A DNA stretch of 64,000 bases, from the IMG/VR virus record IMGVR_UViG_3300046373_000196, positions 1 through 64,000 of that record; one strand, 5' to 3'. Shown one piece after another: positions 3,018 to 61,029 of the stretch. Origin of the DNA: a virus. Each line of letters opens with the position of its first letter. The stretch's first letter is position 1. A model generated the notes under the pieces. The model ran no database searches. It had not been told where the DNA came from and saw only the letters and a program-made list of their open reading frames with translations. The position numbers and the translations under genes are program-made.

Positions 3018-4652
3018 TTAATATCTTGTCATTATTACACCAGTCGGTGTTCTGTAGTATGCACCTATTGCAACATTACCTGCAGCGGCAGATGCATTAT
3101 CGGAATAGACGGGTAGAGATGAAGGTTGCGGGAATTTATTTAGATATAAATCAAGTTCTTGTGATGTTGGAACTTTACGCGATCCAATTCGATGAATTTT
3201 AAATTGTGCTGAAACTGGAAGGGTAGTGGAAGCGTCAACAAAGCTAACGCCGAAGGTTGTCACAACGATTGCGGGAACACCTCCGTTTAATTGCATTGGA
3301 GGGGTTTTGATCGTATACCTGCCTACTGGATAGTATGATAAAACAGCCGCATCTGGATAATATCCTTCCGTATATCCTAACTGAGTTGCATAGCCGGCTG
3401 TGTGTACAGTAATCTTTGGTCTTATAGCGTTAATATTGACCATGGGCGAAAGTATTTCAATATCCAGGATACCTTCAATTATATCGCCTTGCTGATAAAA
3501 TGAAGTAACGTAGTCTTGCACGACATTAAACCCTTTTCCATTTCCTGTATAATTACCTGAAATAGTAAACAACTGCTGATTTTGCCCATTAACAACAGAT
3601 TTTGATGGAGTTAATGTTGCTCCTCCTGTAAATTGCTGTGTAGAAAAGCTACTTGCTAATGTAGTACCTCCCGCTAAGGAATAGTTATTAACTCCTTCGG
3701 GGCTTATTTGATAACTTGCTGAAACGTCCTCGATTTCTGCTGCTAAAAGCTGACCCACAGATTTTCCTAACAAGTACGAACCCTGCGCATTAGGGTGTAA
3801 ACCATCGGCAAAGTAAGAAGCACTTGTCAATATTGTTTCGGCATTTACTGTACCGGTTAAATCTTTATTTGCTAAAATCCATGCATTTACATTTGCCCGT
3901 GTCGCCTCATTTGCTGTAGATAGCAAATCTGAAGGCGCATATCTTGGTGGTATCGTAATTGCAATAACCTTACACCCTATAGATAGTAGAGCCTTGTATA
4001 TAATATTCAGGTTGTTCTCTATAACCGCCTCGGATACGGATTGGCCGGTATCATTTGATCCAAGCAAGACAACGGCCATTTTTGGTCTCATAGCCAGGAT
4101 GGCGCCCAGTCGGGCTATAACCTGATCCGTTCGCTCCCCTGAGACCCCTTTATTCCCTCCAATTGGGTAATAATATTTATGACCTGCCGCAATATTTGCG
4201 TGGGTGGGATATCCTGCGCCCTGATAAAAATAGTTTGTACCATTGGCTGTAAAACCATGCTGGGTGATACTATCTCCTATGTAAACTATTTTAGAATCAA
4301 CGGGGAGTTTTTTTAGATTTAAAACCGCCGTATTGTCCGCTGCCGTATAACCAAGAGCCGTATTTATTTGACTGGCATTAATTGCAGGAGCGACTGAACC
4401 ATGCAACTCAAACCCGTCCCAATAGTAAACCACATTCGTTTGTCCGGATACTTCATCCGTTTCCACCACAAACTGTTTTGGGATACCCGGATTCTTCATC
4501 GTTAGCATTTCTGCATACGTGTCAGCCCTTTGGGCAATAAGATCGCGTCCTTCGCGCAAACCTTTACGAAGGTAGCCAGCCGGGACTTGCTGACCGTATC
4601 CGCAAAGGGATATGCTGATCAGTAGTAATGCGGAAATAAACCGTAGTTTCAT
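3018..4652 (-). CDS. exported SGNH hydrolase (GDSL esterase/deacetylase-like)
   Basis: Signal peptide MKLRFISALLLISISLCGYGQQ. SGNH blocks VYIGDSITQHG, VVLLGSNDTG and DGLHPN. The C-terminal 31 aa are shared with 36744..38312. Confidence 0.7.
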   Translation of the reverse strand: MKLRFISALLLISISLCGYGQQVPAGYLRKGLREGRDLIAQRADTYAEMLTMKNPGIPKQFVVETDEVSGQTNVVYYWDGFELHGSVAPAINASQINTALGYTAADNTAVLNLKKLPVDSKIVYIGDSITQHGFTANGTNYFYQGAGYPTHANIAAGHKYYYPIGGNKGVSGERTDQVIARLGAILAMRPKMAVVLLGSNDTGQSVSEAVIENNLNIIYKALLSIGCKVIAITIPPRYAPSDLLSTANEATRANVNAWILANKDLTGTVNAETILTSASYFADGLHPNAQGSYLLGKSVGQLLAAEIEDVSASYQISPEGVNNYSLAGGTTLASSFSTQQFTGGATLTPSKSVVNGQNQQLFTISGNYTGNGKGFNVVQDYVTSFYQQGDIIEGILDIEILSPMVNINAIRPKITVHTAGYATQLGYTEGYYPDAAVLSYYPVGRYTIKTPPMQLNGGVPAIVVTTFGVSFVDASTTLPVSAQFKIHRIGSRKVPTSQELDLYLNKFPQPSSLPVYSDNASAAAGNVAIGAYYRTPTGVIMTRY

Positions 4653-8119: not shown

Positions 8120-9922
8120 TTATTGCAATTTTATTTTTACGATTGTATTGATATTCCCGCCGTTCTGCCCCCATTTATTGCGGTATGGATCGCCTTTGAA
8201 CGTATCGAGCGTGTAAGTGACGGTTGGATTAGCTGGAAGCTGTGGGACGGTGTTTCCTGCCTTTACATAGTCATTCTGCAAAGTCCATAGTGCAGGAGCA
8301 AGCGTAGTAATGTTATTCCCCGCATCACCGTAGGAAAAGGCCATGGCAAAGTGAATGATCTTGCCGCCACGCTTGAAGAAAGAGGAGCCGTAATCAAGAA
8401 GTCTTTGTGAGCTGGTCGGGTTTCCGTAGTAGGTGCTTCCATCGGTTGATAAATCTTCGGGATCAAACTCAATGGCTGCTTCTGCGTTCGGGAACGTCCC
8501 TGCATTGAAATCAGCAGAATAGATTTTATCATTGACTGAATATTGGTTGCCGCCTTCGGAAGAGTAAATCACATCAACGCCTTCAAAGATTTTATTCAGC
8601 CGGTAGGTCATGTACCAGGCGGACTGCGCGCCTCCTGCATCGGCATAAAATCCGCAAACCTTGCCGCCTCCTTCGTGTACACCATCCCGGAAATAAGCGT
8701 GTACAGAGGTTAGTCCGTCGGTTATGAACTCGTACCAGTGCTTGCCGACTGTCGTATTCCACATGTCGCCTGTGGTAAAAGCATCGGTCGGATCCTGTGA
8801 AACAGGTGGAGCAGAGCCAGCCAGACCTTTGCTTGCAATGTAAGAAGCCCACGCGGTGCGCTCTGCTTGTGAATACCCTGTCAATGCAACATTTTTTATT
8901 TCATGCGTTGACGGGTTAAAGCTTTTGATGATCGGATTGTAGTACTCTTCCGTCTCTCCAAAGCCAAGTGAAATGTAGTCCGTATCATTCGGGTACTGTG
9001 CAAGTACCTGCGCCATGTGTTTGACACACTTTTTGAGCTTTTCCTTGCCGGTTTGCGAGTACAGAGCGAATTCATACTTATCATTCTCTAATATCCACAG
9101 TTCACCATTTGATCCTGTCACGCGCTCACCATCGGGTACGAAACCATCACCAATTTTACGCACTCCCCAGAAACAGACACTGAACTTTAAGCCGCGCGAC
9201 TTGCAGTAGTTCATTGCCGCAAGAAGCTTTGCATCGTTGTAGTTGTTTTCAGTCGGTTCGTAGTCCATCCAGCGGACAAGAAGCCTCACACCGTTAATTC
9301 CTGAGAAGGTAGTGCCGTTGTAGGAAAGCGTATTGAAAGCGGTAATCCTTTTTCTCCACTCTTCATTAATTCCGTACTGGTCGGTCGGGTCGAAACCGTA
9401 ACCCGTTGTGTTCATGTAGATCCGTAGCCCACTGGAAGCAACAACAGGCGGCGCAGTCAGGGTAAAGGCTACCGGATTAGGCGTTGTAGGGCACCCGATC
9501 CCTTTGATGTACAGGAAATACTCGCCGTAACCGATCTGGTTATAATTAACTGTAATTGTAGGCGAAGAGCTTGAAGCAGAGCCTTGTCTTACGATGCCTG
9601 TACCGTTTGAGATGTTCCAGACAATATCCGGTACATTCAGTCCTGACCATGTGAAAGTAAGTGAAGTCTGGCTTTTGGCTGTAATGCCTGTGATGGTTGG
9701 ACCCGAGCAGACCGGCGTTGGATTGGTGGGTGTTGTCGGATCAGTCGGATTTGTCGGCGTAGTGCCGCCTGTTGTATCGATCCGGTTCATTAAACTTTCC
9801 AAAAGTAGCTTCACGTACTCCTGTGTCGCTGCTTTTCCTCCGTTGTTAATCCGAAGGTTTACCTGACCCAAACACATGGTATGGACAAGCAAAAGGATTA
9901 TTAAACCTTGTAATTTCTTCAT
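8120..9922 (-). CDS. exported multi-domain protein: fibre-like N-motif, Pro/Thr linker, Cys-bounded Ig-like module, TIM-barrel glycosidase-like domain
   Basis: Signal peptide MKKLQGLIILLLVHTMCLGQ. ATQEYVKLL motif. TNPTDPTTPTNPTP linker. CSGPTITGI...GIGC module. LLVRWMDYEPTENNYND...SRGLKFSVCFWG resembles GH42/GH14-type barrels, recognised by eye only. Confidence 0.5.
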   Translation of the reverse strand: MKKLQGLIILLLVHTMCLGQVNLRINNGGKAATQEYVKLLLESLMNRIDTTGGTTPTNPTDPTTPTNPTPVCSGPTITGITAKSQTSLTFTWSGLNVPDIVWNISNGTGIVRQGSASSSSPTITVNYNQIGYGEYFLYIKGIGCPTTPNPVAFTLTAPPVVASSGLRIYMNTTGYGFDPTDQYGINEEWRKRITAFNTLSYNGTTFSGINGVRLLVRWMDYEPTENNYNDAKLLAAMNYCKSRGLKFSVCFWGVRKIGDGFVPDGERVTGSNGELWILENDKYEFALYSQTGKEKLKKCVKHMAQVLAQYPNDTDYISLGFGETEEYYNPIIKSFNPSTHEIKNVALTGYSQAERTAWASYIASKGLAGSAPPVSQDPTDAFTTGDMWNTTVGKHWYEFITDGLTSVHAYFRDGVHEGGGKVCGFYADAGGAQSAWYMTYRLNKIFEGVDVIYSSEGGNQYSVNDKIYSADFNAGTFPNAEAAIEFDPEDLSTDGSTYYGNPTSSQRLLDYGSSFFKRGGKIIHFAMAFSYGDAGNNITTLAPALWTLQNDYVKAGNTVPQLPANPTVTYTLDTFKGDPYRNKWGQNGGNINTIVKIKLQ

Positions 9923-9968
9923 TAAAATAGTGTGTGTAGAATACGGTCATAAAGATAATTAATTTTAT

Positions 9969-9997
9969 AAATAAATATTGTAGAATGATATTTATTC
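9969..9997. promoter_or_regulatory. 29-bp dyad promoter/operator element, copy 2 (bidirectional)
   Basis: AAATAAATATT-gtagaat-GATATTTATTC. -7 boxes TATGTTTG at 10012-10019 (+) and TATCTTTA (rc of 9950-9957, -). Confidence 0.7.
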
Positions 9998-10026
9998 TGT
10001 TGATTAATTAGTATGTTTGAGGCGTC

Positions 10027-10110
10027 AATAACGTTGCAGGTTATTAACACTCAAAAAGATATTCAAAGCCTGGCTTAGTAGCGCTGCAACCGCGAACAGC
10101 CGGGCTTTTT
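10027..10110 (+). promoter_or_regulatory. structured 5' leader: hairpin plus terminator-like hairpin with complementary 7-nt apical loops
   Basis: Hairpin 1: AATAAC/GTTATT (10027-10045) with loop GTTGCAG. Hairpin 2: AAAGCCTGGCT/AGCCGGGCTTT (10065-10108) with inner GCG/CGC and apical loop CTGCAAC (10084-10090), then a T-run. The ATG is at 10124. Confidence 0.6.
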
Positions 10111-10123
10111 GTAATTTAATATT

Positions 10124-10777
10124 ATGGAAAAAGAAAAGTATGAGACTCAAAAGGATTTGTTTTATATTCTTGAAAATTGGGTTAACGGAGATTACCAAGC
10201 CAATTATTTAAGAACTATCAATAGAGAAAACAAGAAATATTTAATTTCGGATTGCCAGCGATATGTAAAATCTTGGGATGTTCCTGGTCAGGATTACAAA
10301 TACACTTTTATATACAAGTGGGCAAGAAAGTACTTTAAAGATGATAGCGAGCTAGGATTTAGGCGTTCTATTGATAGGAATTCAAATACAGATGGTGTCA
10401 TGAATTACTCACTAGTTCAACCTTACGAAGTACAATGCAATGAAGATTTTAAAAAGTTATTTGAGGGCAAACATTTGAGTCTGTATGACTTTAATATTCC
10501 TACTAATCATCCCTTTTCTGGATGGGATTTAAAAACAGTCTCTTATCTGAAATCGCTATTTAAAACAAATGAAGTTTACGTTTTTTTTGATGATGGAATA
10601 GAAAGAAAGCCTCAATCTGACCTACATAAAACAGGTACTTTATTTCATATGAACCATTTCGGGATTGACAAAAAATTTATAAAAAACGATTTGCAGTATT
10701 ATAATAGAACTATCATTTTTTGGCTATTTGAAAACAGATTAGTTTTTAAATATGAATCGGGGAAAGATACTTGGTAG
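10124..10777 (+). CDS. hypothetical protein
   Basis: ORF track. First gene after promoter copy 2 and the leader. Confidence 0.5.
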   Translation: MEKEKYETQKDLFYILENWVNGDYQANYLRTINRENKKYLISDCQRYVKSWDVPGQDYKYTFIYKWARKYFKDDSELGFRRSIDRNSNTDGVMNYSLVQPYEVQCNEDFKKLFEGKHLSLYDFNIPTNHPFSGWDLKTVSYLKSLFKTNEVYVFFDDGIERKPQSDLHKTGTLFHMNHFGIDKKFIKNDLQYYNRTIIFWLFENRLVFKYESGKDTW

Positions 10778-12892: not shown

Positions 12893-13012
12893 TGGATATT
12901 TCGGAGAAGTTGACCACCTGATTCCGTGGCAAATTGACCAGCAAATTAGCTGGCGGCCGGAAGCAATAAATGCTGTAGAAGCGATGTCAAAATTAGTAAA
13001 TAAAAATTATAA

Positions 13013-13762
13013 TTACAGGTAACCGTTTTCGGTCTCCGGTTTACGCTTTCTTCTCATGGATTCTCCTTTTAATTCTATGCGGTGTGCGTCATGAACAATA
13101 CGATCTAAAATTGCATCCGCAATTGTTTTTTCTCCGATTACTTCGTGCCATTTGCTTACCGGTAATTGAGATGTGATGATAAGTGATGTCTTGCCATGCC
13201 TGTCTTCAATGATTTCCATCAGCGCTGCCCTGCTTTGAGCATCGAAGGGCTGGATGCCAAAGTCGTCAAGAATTAGGAGCTGCTGCCGCTCGATTTTAGC
13301 AATTTCTTTGATATAAGATCCGTCAGCCTTAGCCATTTTGAGCTTGGCAAAAAGTTTGGGAGTACTCGCGTAAAATACGCGGTAGCCCAGGATGCATGCC
13401 TGATGGCCAATCGCAGACGCTACATAACTTTTGCCGATCCCTGTGCTTCCAGTGATTAGCAGATTCTCGTTGCGTTCAATAAAAGTACACTCTGCCAGGC
13501 GTATAACCTGGTTGCGGTCGATACTCCGGTCAGCGTGGTAATGTACATTTTCAACCATGGCCTTATAGCGGAAGCGTGCAGACAGGATCTGCCGTTCTAC
13601 ACGACGGTTATTTCGATCATCCCATTCAGCGTCAACCAGATGAGCTAAAAGCTCATCTGGTGTATAATTGTTGGTCTGCCCGGTTTCCAGGCTACTTTTA
13701 AAGGCATGGAACATGCCGAAGAACTTAAGCTTGCGTAATTTTTCTAATGTGCTGCTATTCAT
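13013..13762 (-). CDS. istB: IS21-family helper ATPase IstB
   Basis: Walker A GSTGIGKSY, Walker B LLILDDFG, and a typical IstB N-terminus (KLKFFGM...). Confidence 0.9.
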   Translation of the reverse strand: MNSSTLEKLRKLKFFGMFHAFKSSLETGQTNNYTPDELLAHLVDAEWDDRNNRRVERQILSARFRYKAMVENVHYHADRSIDRNQVIRLAECTFIERNENLLITGSTGIGKSYVASAIGHQACILGYRVFYASTPKLFAKLKMAKADGSYIKEIAKIERQQLLILDDFGIQPFDAQSRAALMEIIEDRHGKTSLIITSQLPVSKWHEVIGEKTIADAILDRIVHDAHRIELKGESMRRKRKPETENGYL

Positions 13763-13782
13763 TTTATTAATTGTTTAAAGGA

Positions 13783-15333
13783 TTATTGATAGTAATCTTC
13801 GCCTCTGATATTATCATGTTTTGGCATTTGCAATTCGTCCGCAAAAAGACTGTCTTCATATTGATCCATGTTCTTCTCCAGGATGGTCTGGATTGTCTTG
13901 TAATTATATATCCCATAACTTAAGGCCCTTTGACAGGCGCTGATCAGTCTTTGTTCACCAGCCTTTTTTGCAAAAGATAAAATGCCGATACAGGAGCGGT
14001 AGGCCTGTTCGGGGTGCTGCTTACGGTCCAGGATTTTAAGGATATACAACCTGACATCTTCGTGGATTGATGCGGCCCATTCCAAAAAACGGTCAGGTGT
14101 CCAGTCTGTTACGAAGCGGTGCGTGCTGGCCAGATGTTCTTTATCCGTGGAATAACTGTAGGGGCTTTTAACACGCTTGTGCAGGGCTATGCGCTCGTAG
14201 TGATAGTACATCTCAACAAGAGAAGTAGAATATAAAAGCTTTACTTTTTTACCAATAAAGCGGTAAGGAACGCTATAATAGTGCTTATCTACCCCCAGGC
14301 AAACGTGACCGTTCTTCATTACCGTTACATGGGCGTGCTTTTTAAACTCATACCGCAGAAGCGGAAGCGGGGCCAGCGCAGAACGCTCAACTTCTTCAAA
14401 CTGAAGCCGACGGCTGTAATTACGTCCGCGCAGGAGCTGACTGTTATGTACTTCAAGTGCCTGAAGTATCGCAGAATTTAACTCAGAAAGTGAGCTGTAT
14501 ACCTGTTTTCTCAAAGGAGCATAGATCCGGCTGTAAACGATTTTAACCGCTCCTTCAACCAAGGCTTTATCGCGTGGTCGGTAAGCACGTGCAGGCAAAA
14601 TGGTAGTGCCATAATGATCAGCAAAATCAGCAAACGATTCATTCAGGGTAGGCTCATAACGGTGACTTTTAGTAACTGCTGCCTTTAAATTATCCGGAAC
14701 AATGGCAGCTGGAACACCGCCGATATAATGAAGTGTATTCTCGCAGGCAGCTATAAAATCTTCCTTCTGCTGGCTCATAACAGCTTCTACATAAGTAAGC
14801 TGACTAGCGCCAAGAATAGCAACAAATACCTCAACGTCAGTCACTTCTCCAGTCTCTTTATCTGTTAGATTCAGCTTGACGCCAGCAAAATCAACATATA
14901 ACTTATCACCTGCCTTGTGATCCTGATGCATCACAGGATTTACCCTGGCTTTCCATTTGGTTAAATGGAAGCAGAACTGGGTATAGGCAAAACCGTCGGG
15001 AAACTCTTTTTTATAGGCTTCCCAAAGCATGCGCCTATTTACTCCGGTTCGTTTTAGCTCCTTGTCAATATGGGGAAAACAACGCTGTAAGACCAGTAAA
15101 CGGTCCTGTGATGGTGGTTCTTTAACCGTGCCGAAAAAGTCGTCAAGTTCTTTATCATTGAGGCTGTTGATCTGTTCGAATGTAAGCCCGCTCGCATCAT
15201 AGGTAGCCATATACTTCTTGGCTGTATTACGCGAGACACCGGTCTGCTCAGCAATTGAAAGTTTGCTGCGACCTTGACTGTACATCCTTAAAATCTGTCT
15301 TATCTTACTCATGCTGATTGTCGAATTAGCCAT
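13783..15333 (-). CDS. istA: IS21-family transposase IstA
   Basis: N-terminal HTH (IRQILRMYSQGRSKLSIAEQTGVSRNTAKKY). DDE-type core with DFAG...D...E spacing typical of IstA. 516 aa. Confidence 0.9.
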   Translation of the reverse strand: MANSTISMSKIRQILRMYSQGRSKLSIAEQTGVSRNTAKKYMATYDASGLTFEQINSLNDKELDDFFGTVKEPPSQDRLLVLQRCFPHIDKELKRTGVNRRMLWEAYKKEFPDGFAYTQFCFHLTKWKARVNPVMHQDHKAGDKLYVDFAGVKLNLTDKETGEVTDVEVFVAILGASQLTYVEAVMSQQKEDFIAACENTLHYIGGVPAAIVPDNLKAAVTKSHRYEPTLNESFADFADHYGTTILPARAYRPRDKALVEGAVKIVYSRIYAPLRKQVYSSLSELNSAILQALEVHNSQLLRGRNYSRRLQFEEVERSALAPLPLLRYEFKKHAHVTVMKNGHVCLGVDKHYYSVPYRFIGKKVKLLYSTSLVEMYYHYERIALHKRVKSPYSYSTDKEHLASTHRFVTDWTPDRFLEWAASIHEDVRLYILKILDRKQHPEQAYRSCIGILSFAKKAGEQRLISACQRALSYGIYNYKTIQTILEKNMDQYEDSLFADELQMPKHDNIRGEDYYQ

Positions 15334-15396
15334 ACTTCCACACGATTGGTTCGTGTCAAAAGTAAGGTTGATTCCACAGCATTTTTTGCTCTACCC

Positions 15397-15517
15397 GGTG
15401 GTCAGTTTGCTCCGAATTCAGGTGGTCAATTTACTCCGAATTCGGGTAGTCAATTTCGCCCGGAACAGGTGGTCAGCTTAAACCGAATTGAGGTGGTCAG
15501 TTACACCGAATTTTCCA
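15397..15517. repeat. five direct subterminal repeats at the IS21 right end
   Basis: GGTGGTCAGTTTGCTCCGAATTCA / GGTGGTCAATTTACTCCGAATTCG / GGTAGTCAATTTCGCCCGGAACA / GGTGGTCAGCTTAAACCGAATTGA / GGTGGTCAGTTACACCGAATTTTCCA. Multiple transposase-binding repeats are a hallmark of IS21 ends. Confidence 0.8.
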
Positions 15518-20101: not shown

Positions 20102-20130
20102 AAATAAATATCGTAGATAGATATTTTTAT
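20102..20130. promoter_or_regulatory. 29-bp dyad promoter/operator element, copy 3 (bidirectional)
   Basis: AAATAAATATC-gtagata-GATATTTTTAT. -7 boxes TAGCTTTG at 20145-20152 (+) and TATCTTTG (rc of 20083-20090, -). Confidence 0.7.
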
Positions 20131-20161
20131 TGTTAGGAAATTAGTAGCTTTGGGGTGTACT

Positions 20162-20253
20162 AAATGGTATTTCTTTTGTGATAGGAAGTGATACCATTCT
20201 CTGGAATGGAACTTCCATCAGACCCCAAACTTGTCTATCACCTTGTTTGGGGT
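20162..20253 (+). promoter_or_regulatory. structured 5' leader: hairpins plus terminator-like hairpin with complementary loop sequences
   Basis: Hairpin AATGGTAT/ATACCATT (20163-20198) carries GTGATAG (20178-20184) in its loop. A small hairpin TGGAA/TTCCA follows. Hairpin ACCCCAAAC/GTTTGGGGT (20222-20253) carries CTATCAC (20235-20241) in its loop, followed by a U-rich tract. The ATG is at 20270. Confidence 0.6.
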
Positions 20254-20269
20254 TCTTCGTTTATTTATC

Positions 20270-21770: not shown

Positions 21771-21801
21771 AAAACCACTACCAACCAGTAGTGGTTTTTT
21801 T
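21771..21801 (+). terminator. intrinsic terminator
   Basis: AAAACCACTA-ccaaccag-TAGTGGTTTTTTT. Confidence 0.8.
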
Positions 21802-21848: not shown

Positions 21849-21948
21849 GATTTTTTAATTATACATTTGTTGTGTATGATAAAAGCCAAGTTTTCATTCG
21901 ATTGAACCCTTGGAACGACAGAATACTACACACACACTTAATTATTTC

Positions 21949-22617: not shown

Positions 22618-22653
22618 GTAAGCATTTAACACACACACTTAATTTCTTGACAA

Positions 22654-40616: not shown

Positions 40617-40704
40617 AAACCCGCATCAAGTGAGGTTGACGCGGGTTTCTATGAATTTCCATTCATTGAATGGTATTGAGGAGCCTCACTTCGCCAATAC
40701 CATT
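40617..40704 (-). promoter_or_regulatory. structured 5' leader (minus strand): hairpin plus terminator-like hairpin with complementary loops
   Basis: RNA sense. Hairpin 1: AAUGGUAUUG/CAAUACCAUU (40669-40704), loop containing AGUGAGG. Hairpin 2: AAACCCGCGUCAA/UUGAUGCGGGUUU (40617-40648), apical loop CCUCAC, then a U-rich tract. The ATG is at 40595. Confidence 0.6.
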
Positions 40705-40771: not shown

Positions 40772-42106
40772 CTATTCAAGCAACTTCTCAAAAGCCACTT
40801 TCACATTCTTAAACTCAAATTTGGATATCTCCGCCATCATCCGGCCATAGATCAGATCATTCTGCAAGTTTCCGATACTGCCTTCGTGCGTATGTTTCAG
40901 TTGACGCGGCGGAACATAACTTCCATCACCAATTTCTGCTCCAACCTGACGGTACGCATCACGGAAAGGAACGCCGTTGATTACCAGCTCATTCACCCTT
41001 TCCACACTGAAAAGTAGATCGTATTTAGGGTCGTCAAGCAAATTTTGTTTTACCTTGATATTTTCAAGCATAAAGGCTGCAATATCCAGACAGTCCAGTA
41101 TTTCGTCAAAAGCCGGCATCAGGATTTCTTTCAAAAGCTGCATATCACGATGATAACCTGATGGAAGATTACTCAAAACCATTGTTATTTCCATTGGCAA
41201 AGCCTTCATCCGGTTCGTTTTGGCACGAAGCAATTCGGCTACATCCGGATTTTTTTTGTGCGGCATAATGCTGCTTCCGGTCGTTAGATCATCTGGCAAA
41301 ATAATAAAGCTGAAATTCTGGCTGTTGTACAAACAAACATCCATCGCAAGTCTTGAAACCGTAGCAGCTAAGGAAGAAATGGCTGTTAGCGCAGCTTGTT
41401 CCGTACGTCCACGGCTCATTTGTGCGTAAACAACATTGTGGTGCATTCCTTCAAAACCCAGCAATTCCGTTGTCATAGTCCTGTTCAACGGGAAGGAAGA
41501 ACCGTAACCGGCACCCGATCCCAGCGGATTTCTGTTTGCCAGACGGTATGCAGCGTTTAATTGAATTACATCGTCGATCAAACCTTCGGCATAAGCACCA
41601 AACCATAATCCGAAAGAGGAAGGCATGGCAATCTGCAAGTGGGTATAACCTGGCAAAAGATCATTTTTATGTTCTTCTGATTTGCTGATTAAAACATCGA
41701 AAAGTTTTTCCGTAGCTTGTACAACCTGAAAAAGTCGGTCACGGGTATAGAGTTTCATATCAACCAGAACCTGATCATTACGGGAACGACCGCTATGGAT
41801 TTTCTTGCCAATATCACCCAATTTGCGCGTCAGCATTAATTCAACCTGTGAATGAACATCTTCAACGCCGTCTTCAATGATAAATTCGCCTAGCTGAATC
41901 TGCGCATAAATTTCTTTAAGTTCCGCTTTCAATGCAGCCAGATCATCAGCCGTTAGCAAACCAATTGTTTCCAGCATAATCGCATGTGCAAGATTTCCAA
42001 GCACATCAAATTCTGCCAAATGCAGATCCATCTCACGATCACGACCTACGGTAAAACGTTCTATTTTTTCAGAAGTAACGGTATTTTCTTTTTGCCAGAG
42101 TTTCAT
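40772..42106 (-). CDS. argH: argininosuccinate lyase
   Basis: MKLWQKE start (ATG at 42106). Fumarate-lyase signature GSSIMPHKKNP. Full-length ArgH-like sequence throughout. Confidence 0.9.
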   Translation of the reverse strand: MKLWQKENTVTSEKIERFTVGRDREMDLHLAEFDVLGNLAHAIMLETIGLLTADDLAALKAELKEIYAQIQLGEFIIEDGVEDVHSQVELMLTRKLGDIGKKIHSGRSRNDQVLVDMKLYTRDRLFQVVQATEKLFDVLISKSEEHKNDLLPGYTHLQIAMPSSFGLWFGAYAEGLIDDVIQLNAAYRLANRNPLGSGAGYGSSFPLNRTMTTELLGFEGMHHNVVYAQMSRGRTEQAALTAISSLAATVSRLAMDVCLYNSQNFSFIILPDDLTTGSSIMPHKKNPDVAELLRAKTNRMKALPMEITMVLSNLPSGYHRDMQLLKEILMPAFDEILDCLDIAAFMLENIKVKQNLLDDPKYDLLFSVERVNELVINGVPFRDAYRQVGAEIGDGSYVPPRQLKHTHEGSIGNLQNDLIYGRMMAEISKFEFKNVKVAFEKLLE

Positions 42107-42129
42107 AGTCCTAAAATTAGGCTGCAAAC

Positions 42130-51913: not shown

Positions 51914-51956
51914 GATAAATTAATTTAACTTTGAGCATTACAACACACACACATAA

Positions 51957-58926: not shown

Positions 58927-58956
58927 AAAAATGCCAGTCGGTTGATTGGCATTTTT
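58927..58956. terminator. bidirectional intrinsic terminator
   Basis: AAAAATGCCA-gtcggttgat-TGGCATTTTT, between convergent genes. Confidence 0.75.
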
Positions 58957-59438: not shown

Positions 59439-60707
59439 TTATAGTAATTGTTTAACCTGTTCTGTAGTGCCGAAAAACTGGTGGGAGAGGGTATCGCTGC
59501 TTACTACCGTATAAGGTGCCGCTTCTTCGATTTTCTTCCAGCCCATTATTTCGATTACATAATACGGATTGATCATCTTTATATTAATAATATAATTCGC
59601 CATGGTCTTTCTGGCTGTATGAAACCTGATTACCCGGTTGGACCCGATCATGTTCATGAATGTATTGAGCATGTTTGAAATCTTGACCAGGTTAAAGGGT
59701 AAATGATCTATTCCGCCGTATTCTTCCAGGATGGCTTCTACTTCTGGTCCAATAGGAACCCTGAACATAGTCCCGGTTTTCCTTCGTTTCCCGATCAGGA
59801 ATTTCCCTAATCTTAATTGAATGATTTCGCCTGGCTGAATATCTTTTGGGCTTTCCGCTTTTTTTACCAGATCATCCCTTTTTTTAGGATTCAAAAGCAT
59901 GTAATCACCAATGGATAACCCAGTATAACAGCAGAAAATGAAGGCAGCTCTGTAATGCCTGGCTTCACCCGTAAGGTTTAGATTCATCAGCGCATGCACT
60001 TCTTCCTGTTCAAGCCACGCCCTGCTAACCGGTGCCGGTACTTTGACAGTCTCTACATACTGGCAAGGGTTTTCGGTAATTTCTTTGGATTTTACAGCAA
60101 AGTTAAATGCATACTTGAAGACAGGGTAAATCCTGGCTGCTGTACCTACTGCGTATTTGGATTTAATTACATCGCGAACTCTTTCTACATCGTGTTCAGT
60201 GAAATTGCATATAGGAACAATCACCAGATCAGTTTCCTCTAAGGCCCATCTGATTATATTCTTATATCTTTTTCTGACCCGGTGCGTACCGATACTTAAA
60301 GTCTTCCCTACATCCTTTTGTTCTGCGTCAATAAATTCATCGAAAATATTTAGGTAGGTTTTTGCATCAGACGGTTGTCCGTGCTTGATCCGGTAATAAA
60401 CATTCTCAATAGACTTTTCTAAATGAGTCTTTGTGAAAATGAATTTTTTTCTTTCGTATTCACTGTGTATCCGGTTAATCTCTTGACGGATACCAACCAT
60501 GAAGTTTTGAACCTCAAAATACAAATCACATTTCTTTCTGGGGTTTTGCGTTCTGACGTCGAACTCTTCAGGATACATGGAAAAGGATTTTACAGCACAA
60601 GCGATCTGCTTATTGTTGACTGTAATCCTAACATTGAGACGCCCTCTTTTTCCTGGGACAGTAGAGGGTTTAACATAAAAATAAATAGTCACTTGATTTA
60701 AGTTCAT
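59439..60707 (-). CDS. int: tyrosine recombinase/integrase (Bacteroidota type with Arm-DNA-binding N-domain)
   Basis: N-terminus VTIYFYVKPS...RLNVRITVNNKQ. Catalytic region RRKTGTMFRVPI, HTARKTMANY and ...APYTVV. ATG at 60707, with an alternative TTG at 60734. Confidence 0.8.
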   Translation of the reverse strand: MNLNQVTIYFYVKPSTVPGKRGRLNVRITVNNKQIACAVKSFSMYPEEFDVRTQNPRKKCDLYFEVQNFMVGIRQEINRIHSEYERKKFIFTKTHLEKSIENVYYRIKHGQPSDAKTYLNIFDEFIDAEQKDVGKTLSIGTHRVRKRYKNIIRWALEETDLVIVPICNFTEHDVERVRDVIKSKYAVGTAARIYPVFKYAFNFAVKSKEITENPCQYVETVKVPAPVSRAWLEQEEVHALMNLNLTGEARHYRAAFIFCCYTGLSIGDYMLLNPKKRDDLVKKAESPKDIQPGEIIQLRLGKFLIGKRRKTGTMFRVPIGPEVEAILEEYGGIDHLPFNLVKISNMLNTFMNMIGSNRVIRFHTARKTMANYIINIKMINPYYVIEIMGWKKIEEAAPYTVVSSDTLSHQFFGTTEQVKQLL

Positions 60708-61029
60708 TATACTATTAGAGATGGGTAGCCTCAATAGTACAGAATGATTTTTATAATAAACGTTAATATTCTAATTTATTAGCATAATAAGTTTTCTACA
60801 ACTATTAGTCACAAATTAAAATAAACTAGTCACAGAACTACCAGAAAAGGCAAGTCATAGTTAATCAATCCAGTACGTCAATGAGCGACAACAATAATAG
60901 TTAAATAAGGCCCTTTTGACCTTGCTGTAGAGAGGAAGATAAACGAAATTTTCATTTATTTTTCCCGTAACTACTTGGTATTTAAACTGCTATAATTGTC
61001 ACCCGATATCTTAGTCACGGAACCAGCAT

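Follow-up and report, generated by a model that had tools for sequence, protein, structure and literature searches.

In plasmid loop-loop systems such as ColE1 RNA I/RNA II with Rom, pT181 and pIP501, the hairpin loops of two transcripts made from opposite strands pair with each other, and in pT181 this contact decides whether a leader terminator forms. Cobalamin riboswitches use such a contact within one molecule: a kissing loop (L5-L13) joins an upstream hairpin to the apical loop of an expression-platform hairpin and stabilizes that hairpin. Here we describe a family of leader RNAs, typified by leader L1 at positions 10027-10110 of a 64,000-nucleotide (nt) stretch of viral DNA (positions 1 to 64,000 of IMG/VR record IMGVR_UViG_3300046373_000196; hereafter the window), in which a 5' hairpin could kiss the loop of a terminator-like hairpin in the same transcript. 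The leader is a real and undescribed structured RNA that probably functions by gating transcription, and we classify it with the structured cis-acting leaders and attenuators that use a kissing loop. Eight instances are found in five metagenomic contigs: four in the window (L1 to L4), which is part of a 79-kb JGI metagenome contig, and L338, L131, L217 and L043 elsewhere.

The apical loops of the plasmid systems are fully complementary over 6-7 nt. Several members of the family are similar, with interacting apical loops of 6-8 nt (7/7 in L1, 6 in L338, 6-8 in L3), a loop geometry known from the classic kissing complexes of ColE1 and TAR. Unlike the plasmid partners, the two leader loops lie on one transcript, and no antisense promoter is evident. 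Cobalamin riboswitches share the intramolecular pairing of an upstream hairpin with a downstream apical loop, whereas the leaders have neither an aptamer nor a conserved core, their loop sequences vary, and the partner is a plain 5'-terminal hairpin. The c4 RNA of phages P1 and P7 and the CI RNA of P4 likewise come from temperate phages or satellites and place short complementary elements in one leader transcript. Their pairs covary between related (heteroimmune) elements, as do those of L1 compared with L338 and L131. However, c4 and CI work as processed, stable RNAs on targets near the ribosome binding site (RBS) or further downstream and trigger Rho-dependent or premature termination, whereas the leader's target would be the loop of its own terminator. 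The put elements of HK022 and the nut/boxB elements of lambda also form hairpins just downstream of temperate-phage early promoters, and they act in cis. In contrast to the leaders, they are not terminators and have conserved features of sequence or structure, and loop-loop complementarity has not been described for them.

Among intrinsic-terminator attenuators of 5' leaders, the zipper type of pLS20 (PMC13401043) places a terminator after the promoter and ahead of the first gene in an operon of a mobile element. Its upstream stem-loop and its terminator are complementary and flank a central stem-loop, an order also seen in one sub-type of the leaders (type B, below). In the leaders, however, the complementarity resides in loops and is bounded by mismatches, it does not stack on the middle hairpin, extend a central stem or create an antiterminator, and it does not exclude the terminator. 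In tug-of-war antitermination (preprint, bioRxiv 10.64898/2026.06.17.733018), a structure sits immediately upstream of an intrinsic terminator, as the type-B middle hairpin does at 0-4 nt. That mechanism needs no pairing with the terminator loop and predicts reduced termination, the opposite of the direction preferred here. A full-text literature search for kissing loops combined with terminators returned these two systems, antisense-RNA attenuation and riboswitch kissing loops; a 5' hairpin that kisses the loop of its own leader terminator was not described.

Architecture of the leaders

Each leader carries a 5' hairpin (H1) and a terminator-like hairpin (T) that is followed by a U-rich tract (Table 1). 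A preliminary description of L1 had reported two hairpins with complementary 7-nt loops, the second of them terminator-like and ending 13 nt before an ATG, and a reading of positions 9850-10250 agrees with it base for base. The two loop 7-mers are exact reverse complements. The positions flanking them are C.C and G.G, so the pairing is exactly loop-sized. H1 and T together make up the minimum-energy structure of L1 (RNAfold), with T at -20.2 kcal/mol and H1, folded alone, at -3.1 kcal/mol. In ensembles restricted to nested pairs, both 7-mers are 93% unpaired, compared with 46% for the whole leader. The kissing segments of the other members are also mostly unpaired in such ensembles (0.55-0.93 for H1 and 0.73-0.98 for T, versus 0.35-0.47 for whole leaders), except in L217 and L4, owing to alternative folds. 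In type A (below), the loop duplex would add -9 to -11 kcal/mol.

The architecture is present four times in the window. Two copies besides L1 had been proposed. The one at 20162-20253 (L2) is real and is given a longer extent here (20162-20266, plus strand). The one at 40617-40704 (L3) also exists, but it is located on the minus strand (40705-40606) and not on the plus strand as had been implied, because only on the minus strand do the order of the hairpins, the T run and the downstream open reading frame (ORF; 40595-40248) make sense. L4 (51853-51756, minus strand) is absent from the preliminary description and was found with a purpose-built scanner. The complementarity spans 8 nt in L3 (AAGTGAGG / CCTCACTT) and 11 nt in L4 (GGTAGAAGGCG / CGCCTTCTACC).

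In all eight instances, a GC-rich hairpin of -12 to -21 kcal/mol is followed within 0-2 nt by a U-rich tract, the sequence hallmark of an intrinsic terminator. Runs of T after the leader hairpins reach 2-6 residues (2-5 in the four window leaders), compared with 6-7 at the window's operon-end terminators, and the leader U tracts are shorter or interrupted by comparison. Such weak tracts fit leaky attenuators. Seven of the eight leaders end 11-26 nt upstream of the first start codon. The exception is L4, whose T hairpin is followed about 140 nt downstream by a tRNA-Met gene (51614-51541, minus strand) and then by an operon with a dUTPase gene. Expression of this tRNA may depend on read-through past L4.

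Two sub-types can be distinguished, and no position is conserved across both. Type-A leaders (L1, L338, L131 and L217) have a weak H1 (-2 to -6 kcal/mol) and a conserved single-stranded linker, and a structure-guided parse finds all parts in each of them. H1 has 5-6 bp and a loop of 7-11 nt, the linker contains TCAAAAAGAWATT in four of four members, and T rises from a lower stem of 10-11 bp through an internal loop, invariably AGUA/GAA, and a 3-bp upper stem to an apical loop of 6-8 nt. Type-B leaders (L2, L3, L4 and L043) have a long H1 (-7 to -13 kcal/mol) and a middle hairpin located 0-4 nt upstream of T, and they have no sequence in common. The leaders do not display a conserved ligand-binding core of the kind that defines a riboswitch; in type A, invariance is limited to the linker and the AGUA/GAA loop. 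This internal loop, which is flanked by helices, matches in sequence the 5'-AGUA-3' / 5'-GAA-3' consensus of the sarcin-ricin (bulged-G) motif (PMC1865062). It may be a docking site for a protein or another RNA.

No conserved antiterminator pairing that excludes the terminator stem was found, and both minimum-energy and ensemble folds keep T in all leaders. In L2, L3 and L4, the 3' half of H1 can pair with the middle region instead (20194-20209, plus strand; 40675-40661 and 51832-51797, minus strand). L2 and L3 have CCAUUC/GAAUGG as this alternative pairing, and the corresponding helix of L4 has 15 bp and exceeds H1 and the middle hairpin together in stability. These pairings leave the terminator stem untouched, and neither type A nor L043 has them. 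They may form a conformational switch in some type-B leaders, one that is not general to the family. The same three leaders contain mini-ORFs whose start lies in the 5' arm of H1 and whose stop codon falls within the kissing sequence: MVFLL* in L2 (20164-20181, plus strand), MVLAK* in L3 (about 40703-40686, minus strand) and MSSR* in L4 (about 51849-51835, minus strand). A ribosome on such a frame would mask the kissing loop. The mini-ORFs are probably incidental because type A and L043 lack them. A leader peptide for type A was also considered and rejected, since the conserved linker is read in different registers by the TTG-initiated frames of L1 and L131.

Loop covariation, promoters and distribution

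When both loops were shuffled 100,000 times, complementarity as good as that observed arose with P = 2.2e-3 for L1, 2.4e-3 for L2, 1.1e-3 for L3 and 8e-5 for L4; across all leaders, the individual P values lie between 8e-5 and 8e-3. Cognate loops in the window match over 7-11 nt, versus at most 5 nt for non-cognate H1 and T loops. A scanner for the combination of hairpin, terminator and loop complementarity finds 0-2 matches per shuffled window. Applied to real Bacteroidota sequence (80 genome loci fetched via the AAA ATPase), the same scanner returns 105 mostly weak matches in 1.28 Mb, or about 5 per 64 kb when both strands are counted. Raw motif counts are thus not evidence for the family, and the weight falls on the position of the leaders, the loop statistics and covariation in homologues. 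An earlier scanner based on RNAfold missed known copies and was dropped.

Homologous leaders in other contigs show that loop complementarity is maintained by compensating changes, as had been proposed from the copies in the window. A MAFFT alignment of the four type-A members, covering the T stems and the kissing helix, has 97.6% of its cells in standard pairs, versus 30-50% when the pairing is slid. Five pairs are changed on both sides, and just one shuffle in 500 scores as high for covariation as the real alignment. Cells that fail to pair occur only at the seventh kissing pair, where they are an artefact of gap placement; in the correct register, this pair is G-C in L1 and C-G in L338, L131 and L217, a compensatory change. 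In all, three of seven kissing positions change on both sides among type-A members without disruption, and five distinct loop pairs occur among the remaining members. The comparison of L1 with L338 is the most direct. Their lower stem, internal loop, upper stem and most of the linker are identical; between the linker core and the end of the terminator stems, 49 aligned columns are unchanged, and only the apical loop differs. The apical loops differ at two aligned positions, with matching changes in the H1 loops. Contiguous Watson-Crick complementarity of about 6-7 nt between two loops, kept by covariation, is what defines a kissing loop, and these comparisons indicate that the loop-loop pairing is under selection. 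An Infernal covariance model of type A, which cannot represent the kissing pairs, recovers nothing beyond its own four members from 0.64 Mb of loci and misses type B.

L338 also reveals that promoter and leader form a cassette. Window positions 10008-10108 are 85% identical over 102 nt to L338 positions 4038-4136, and this is the sole DNA similarity between the two contigs, whose flanking genes are unrelated. The cassette seems from this comparison to move as a unit. Its conservation with unrelated genes speaks for a role in transcription that does not depend on the gene downstream.

The family had been described as a set of structured leaders downstream of a repeated promoter, and all four window copies do directly follow a single promoter type. 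Upstream of each is a palindromic motif, AAATAAATATC-N7-GATATTTATTT, which occurs at eight intergenic sites (16 strand-hits versus 1.85 expected). Boxes that fit TAnnTTTG, the Bacteroidota -7 consensus, adjoin the palindrome on one or both sides. Judged by this consensus, the palindrome and its boxes look like a uni- or bidirectional promoter core, and the transcription start predicted for L1 from its -7 box is plausible. Alternatively, the palindrome could be the operator of a single phage regulator that spans the early and the structural operons.

The leaders had also been said to precede early-like operons, a view borne out by gene content, since only non-structural operons carry them. The L1 operon consists of nine small ORFs of unknown function. 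L2 precedes genes for a 229-amino-acid (aa) Cys/His-rich protein and a 143-aa protein; L3 precedes genes for a 115-aa protein, an AAA ATPase and a 532-aa protein; and L4 is followed by the genes for tRNA-Met and dUTPase and by small ORFs. The same promoter type is found at structural operons with short, plain leaders. One of these operons runs from 21910 past the gene for the major head protein as far as the tape measure gene, and another runs from 51957 into the tail genes. Elsewhere, promoters of the palindrome type are followed by short leaders without structure, in which (CA)n often precedes the ATG. Such tracts, for example ACACACACACTTAATT, occur 5-20 nt upstream of start codons in operons that have no structured leader. 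They are found at 21928-21937, 22629-22638 and about 51940-51950, before the minus-strand starts at 9922, 20006 and 4652, and before position 2834 of L131. They may be translation enhancers that are independent of Shine-Dalgarno (SD) pairing.

The leader fits no named class, as the preliminary description had also concluded. Rfam release 15 has no family that matches the four window leaders at gathering score or at E <= 5 (only tRNA-Met reaches threshold), and megablast and blastn searches give no DNA-level match in GenBank phages. Its known distribution is narrow, with no leader in the other Bacteroidota phages and loci examined. No convincing leader was found in Riemerella phage RAP44, Bacteroides phage Versailles or a Dyadobacter prophage piece. 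A single weak scanner match in phage Versailles (ON453897.1, 20260-20366; GTGATACC / GGTATCAC) lies upstream of the terminase region, and its hairpin-1 part overlaps an annotated coding sequence. Among 58 IMG/VR and several Logan and ENA loci scanned for the family of the 229-aa gene, the leader occurs in L043 only, where it lies upstream of a 51%-identical homologue of the gene that follows L2. The loci of the closest homologues (76% and 55% identity) have no leader. IMG/VR contains no close relatives of the neighbouring 217-aa, 115-aa and 594-aa proteins, and homologues of the tail-like 594-aa protein turned out to belong to cellular polysaccharide loci. Pattern searches were similarly unproductive. 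A DNA pattern for the hairpin stems of L2 and L3 matched an unrelated terminator in another phage group, the promoter palindrome gave only AT-rich chance matches in IMG/VR, and the linker pattern gave at least 120 matches in metagenomes, of which only L217 is real among the matches listed.

Table 1. Leaders, promoter elements and terminators. Coordinates refer to the window and follow the direction of transcription; for leaders of other contigs, the source is given instead.
Feature	Position or source	Strand	Details
L1 H1	10027-10045	+	AATAAC 10027-10032, loop GTTGCAG 10033-10039, GTTATT 10040-10045; 6-bp stem, 7-nt loop
L1 linker	10046-10064	+	19 nt, A-rich, single-stranded; carries TCAAAAAGAWATT
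L1 T and T run	10065-10110	+	terminator-like; hairpin 10065-10108; T5 10106-10110; ATG of 217-aa ORF at 10124, 13 nt on
L1 T lower stem	10065-10075 / 10098-10108	+	11 bp, AAAGCCTGGCT with AGCCGGGCTTT
L1 T internal loop	10077-10080 / 10094-10096	+	AGUA / GAA, within UAGUA/GAAC
L1 T upper stem	10081-10083 / 10091-10093	+	3 bp, GCG with CGC
L1 T apical loop	10084-10090	+	CTGCAAC
L2 H1	20162-20198	+	9 + 5 bp; loop carries GTGATAG 20178-20184
L2 middle hairpin	20200-20222	+	directly abuts terminator stem
L2 T	20223-20266	+	CCCCAAAC...GTTTGGGG; loop carries CTATCAC 20235-20241; U-rich tract next; ATG 20270
L3 leader	40705-40606	-	H1 40705-40669, with AAGTGAGG at 40691-40684
L3 middle hairpin	40666-40651	-
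L3 T	40648-40617	-	CCTCACTT at 40635-40628; U-rich tract 40616-40606; ATG 40595
L4 leader	51853-51756	-	H1 51853-51818, with GGTAGAAGGCG at 51839-51829
L4 middle hairpin	51814-51799	-
L4 T	51795-51766	-	CGCCTTCTACC at 51786-51776; U-rich tract 51767-51756
L338	IMG/VR, same sample as L131		GGTGCAC / GTGCACC
L131	JGI 3300020045		L1 orthologue; GTTGCGC / GCGCAAC; beside 63%-identical homologue of 600-aa gene
L217			close relative of L131; from metagenome pattern scan
L043	Logan SRR13838935		GTGGAAG / CTTCCAC; middle hairpin; T6; 12 nt before ATG
Palindrome sites	4694, 9968, 20101, 21819, 36666, 40733, 46447, 51889		each about 26-28 nt
L1 palindromic promoter-core motif	9969-9996		AAATAAATAT-N9-ATATTTATT; putative -7 boxes on both sides
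L1 -7 box	10012-10019	+	TATGTTTG; predicted transcription start about 10024-10027
L2 -7 box	20145-20152	+	TAGCTTTG; palindrome 20102-20128
L3 -7 box	40722-40715	-
L4 -7 box	51871-51864	-	TATGTTTA
Operon-end terminators (examples)	21775-21794, 36723-36706, 58932-58951		6-7 T

Possible modes of action

The reading favoured here, to which we assign a probability of about 0.45, is that the leader is a promoter-proximal, leaky intrinsic terminator (an attenuator) of non-structural operons whose fold is locked to H1 by intramolecular kissing. The 5'-terminal H1 would fold first, and the emerging T apical loop would pair with the H1 loop through 6-8 bases (11 in L4). This contact, formed once the T loop leaves the polymerase, would tie the 5' end of the transcript to the terminator. 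By analogy with the kissing loops of cobalamin riboswitches, the preferred direction is that the contact locks the terminator-competent fold. Most transcripts would then end at the U-rich tract as RNAs of about 85-100 nt, 11-26 nt before the start codon. Operon expression would require read-through, which might be provided by the weak U tracts, by structure packed on the terminator, or by a factor that recognizes or disrupts the kissing complex.

Several considerations weigh against this reading. Both the start site and termination are predictions, and we likewise infer the direction of the kissing effect and any trans-acting factor. The T hairpins are stable unaided and may not need the contact; in type A, the weak partner is H1. 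The U-rich tract could be a translation-initiation region independent of SD pairing and not a terminator tail. Structures immediately upstream of terminators have been reported to suppress termination (bioRxiv 10.64898/2026.06.17.733018), and with the middle hairpin of type B just 0-4 nt away from T, antitermination could be the net outcome. By a rough length estimate, the type-B linker is too short for coaxial kissing in cis while the middle hairpin is folded; the contact may therefore need that hairpin to open, or may form between molecules. A mutually exclusive antiterminator structure conserved across the family was not found, and only eight instances from five contigs are known. Confidence is held near the value given because T is stable alone, adjacent structure is reported to suppress termination, and the type-B tether is short.

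An unlikely alternative reading is that the leader is a 5' untranslated region module for stability or translation with no regulated termination. Kissing would clamp H1 onto T to create a compact, nuclease-resistant 5' domain, and the U/A-rich stretch, free of structure, would be where ribosomes land in an organism that initiates translation without SD pairing. Consistent with this, H1 starts a few nt from the predicted transcription start, type-A H1 is too weak to persist alone and would gain the energy of the loop duplex, the hairpin base is found at the distance from the ATG that corresponds to the edge of a ribosome footprint, and leader-bearing operons lack the (CA)n tracts seen before other start codons. 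However, the GC-rich stem with its immediate U-rich tract is kept in eight of eight instances, the cassette is conserved whatever the downstream gene, and L4 is followed by a tRNA gene and not an ORF, so a translation-initiation role cannot be general. The invariant AGUA/GAA loop of type A is a typical protein- or RNA-docking motif, and the leaders lie immediately downstream of promoters of non-structural operons in a temperate phage, as do nutL/nutR and putL/putR. These features would suit a docking site for processive antitermination, in which the folded leader, or a protein bound to the kissing complex or to the sarcin-ricin-like loop, modifies RNA polymerase to pass this terminator and later ones in the operon. 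We consider such a role improbable, since the leaders share no common sequence element, type B lacks the AGUA/GAA loop, put and nut elements are not themselves terminators, and Pfam and PHROGs scans of about 50 ORFs reveal no recognizable antiterminator (nor a Rop-like or sigma protein).

The individuality of the loop pairs raises the question of whether they act in trans. The loop pair might be a programmable address, and terminated leaders might be RNA-only regulators, specific to operon and phage, that pair with nascent leaders, either from the same operon or from a related phage in the same cell. They would set timing, dosage or immunity in the manner of P1/P7 c4, P4 CI and plasmid copy-control RNAs. 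In the window, each leader has its own orthogonal loop pair. The differences between L1 and L338 in T and the adjoining linker are confined to the apical loop, which fits selection for new specificity; the type-A layout of 5' hairpin, conserved single-stranded stretch and terminator is that of a classic small RNA; the geometry of type B disfavours cis pairing, according to the length estimate above; and the phage is temperate, with an integrase gene at 59439-60734. Nevertheless, the partners are about 50 nt apart on one molecule, such that pairing in cis should out-compete pairing in trans. In addition, a search of the window for further targets of the leader sequences stays at chance level, processing signals are not known, and type B has no single-stranded seed, all of which leave trans action doubtful. 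That ordinary hairpins or terminators have loops that match by accident would be in keeping with the background of weak scanner matches in real genomes, but the low shuffle P of each of the four window leaders, their location behind the same promoter type and the compensatory changes in orthologues make coincidence close to negligible.

If the attenuator reading holds, a compact leader, about 90 nt long, whose 5' hairpin kisses the loop of a pre-operon terminator would represent a new way of controlling transcription. The leader is modular, in that promoter and leader are shared between unrelated genes, and orthogonal, in that one genome contains four copies that do not cross-match. Both properties would suit an engineering part for Bacteroidota. 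If the loops were addresses instead, the L1/L338 loop swap would represent diversifying selection for new specificities, and Bacteroidota phages would possess an immunity logic like that of c4 and CI acting on a terminator loop. Phages of Bacteroidota are abundant, and their hosts do not use SD pairing. To our knowledge, little is established about gene regulation in these phages, we know of no RNA-based regulation among them, and the hosts lack Hfq as far as is known. Rules derived from E. coli transfer poorly to them for these reasons of host biology (SD pairing and, as far as is known, Hfq).

The phage and neighbouring features

The source is a temperate, siphovirus-like phage of Bacteroidota. 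Pfam and PHROGs scans identify genes for integrase, tape measure, Dit-like and further tail proteins and a major head protein, and siphophages of Riemerella, Porphyromonas and Bacteroides are distant relatives. The 600-aa protein encoded beside L1 is 61% identical to a protein in a prophage-like region of Dyadobacter sp. 3J3. The L1 operon ends with an insertion sequence-like element (12903-15507) that has inverted repeats at 12903-12940 and 15399-15460. It contains an ORF (13013-13762, minus strand), a transposase gene (13783-15333, minus strand) and 24-nt tandem units (15395-15507).

The 229-aa protein encoded after L2 (20270-20959, plus strand) starts with MHDP and has invariant DDSCGWF and HPRWHIHHW motifs and Cys pairs. 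Its 226 homologues come from phage, metagenome and genome contigs, some of them crAss-like, and the protein belongs to no Pfam or PHROG family. A Lyase_1 (adenylosuccinate-lyase-like) gene (40772-42127, minus strand) ends beside the L3 promoter.

One further element in the window resembles the leaders in outline. At 4221-4306 (plus strand), a weak hairpin is followed by a terminator-like hairpin with a T7 run, and their loops are complementary over 10 nt (AAAATAGTTT / AAACTATTTT). No promoter is evident for this element, which lies antisense inside a lipase-like ORF (3018-4652, minus strand) and could be a chance match or an antisense RNA.

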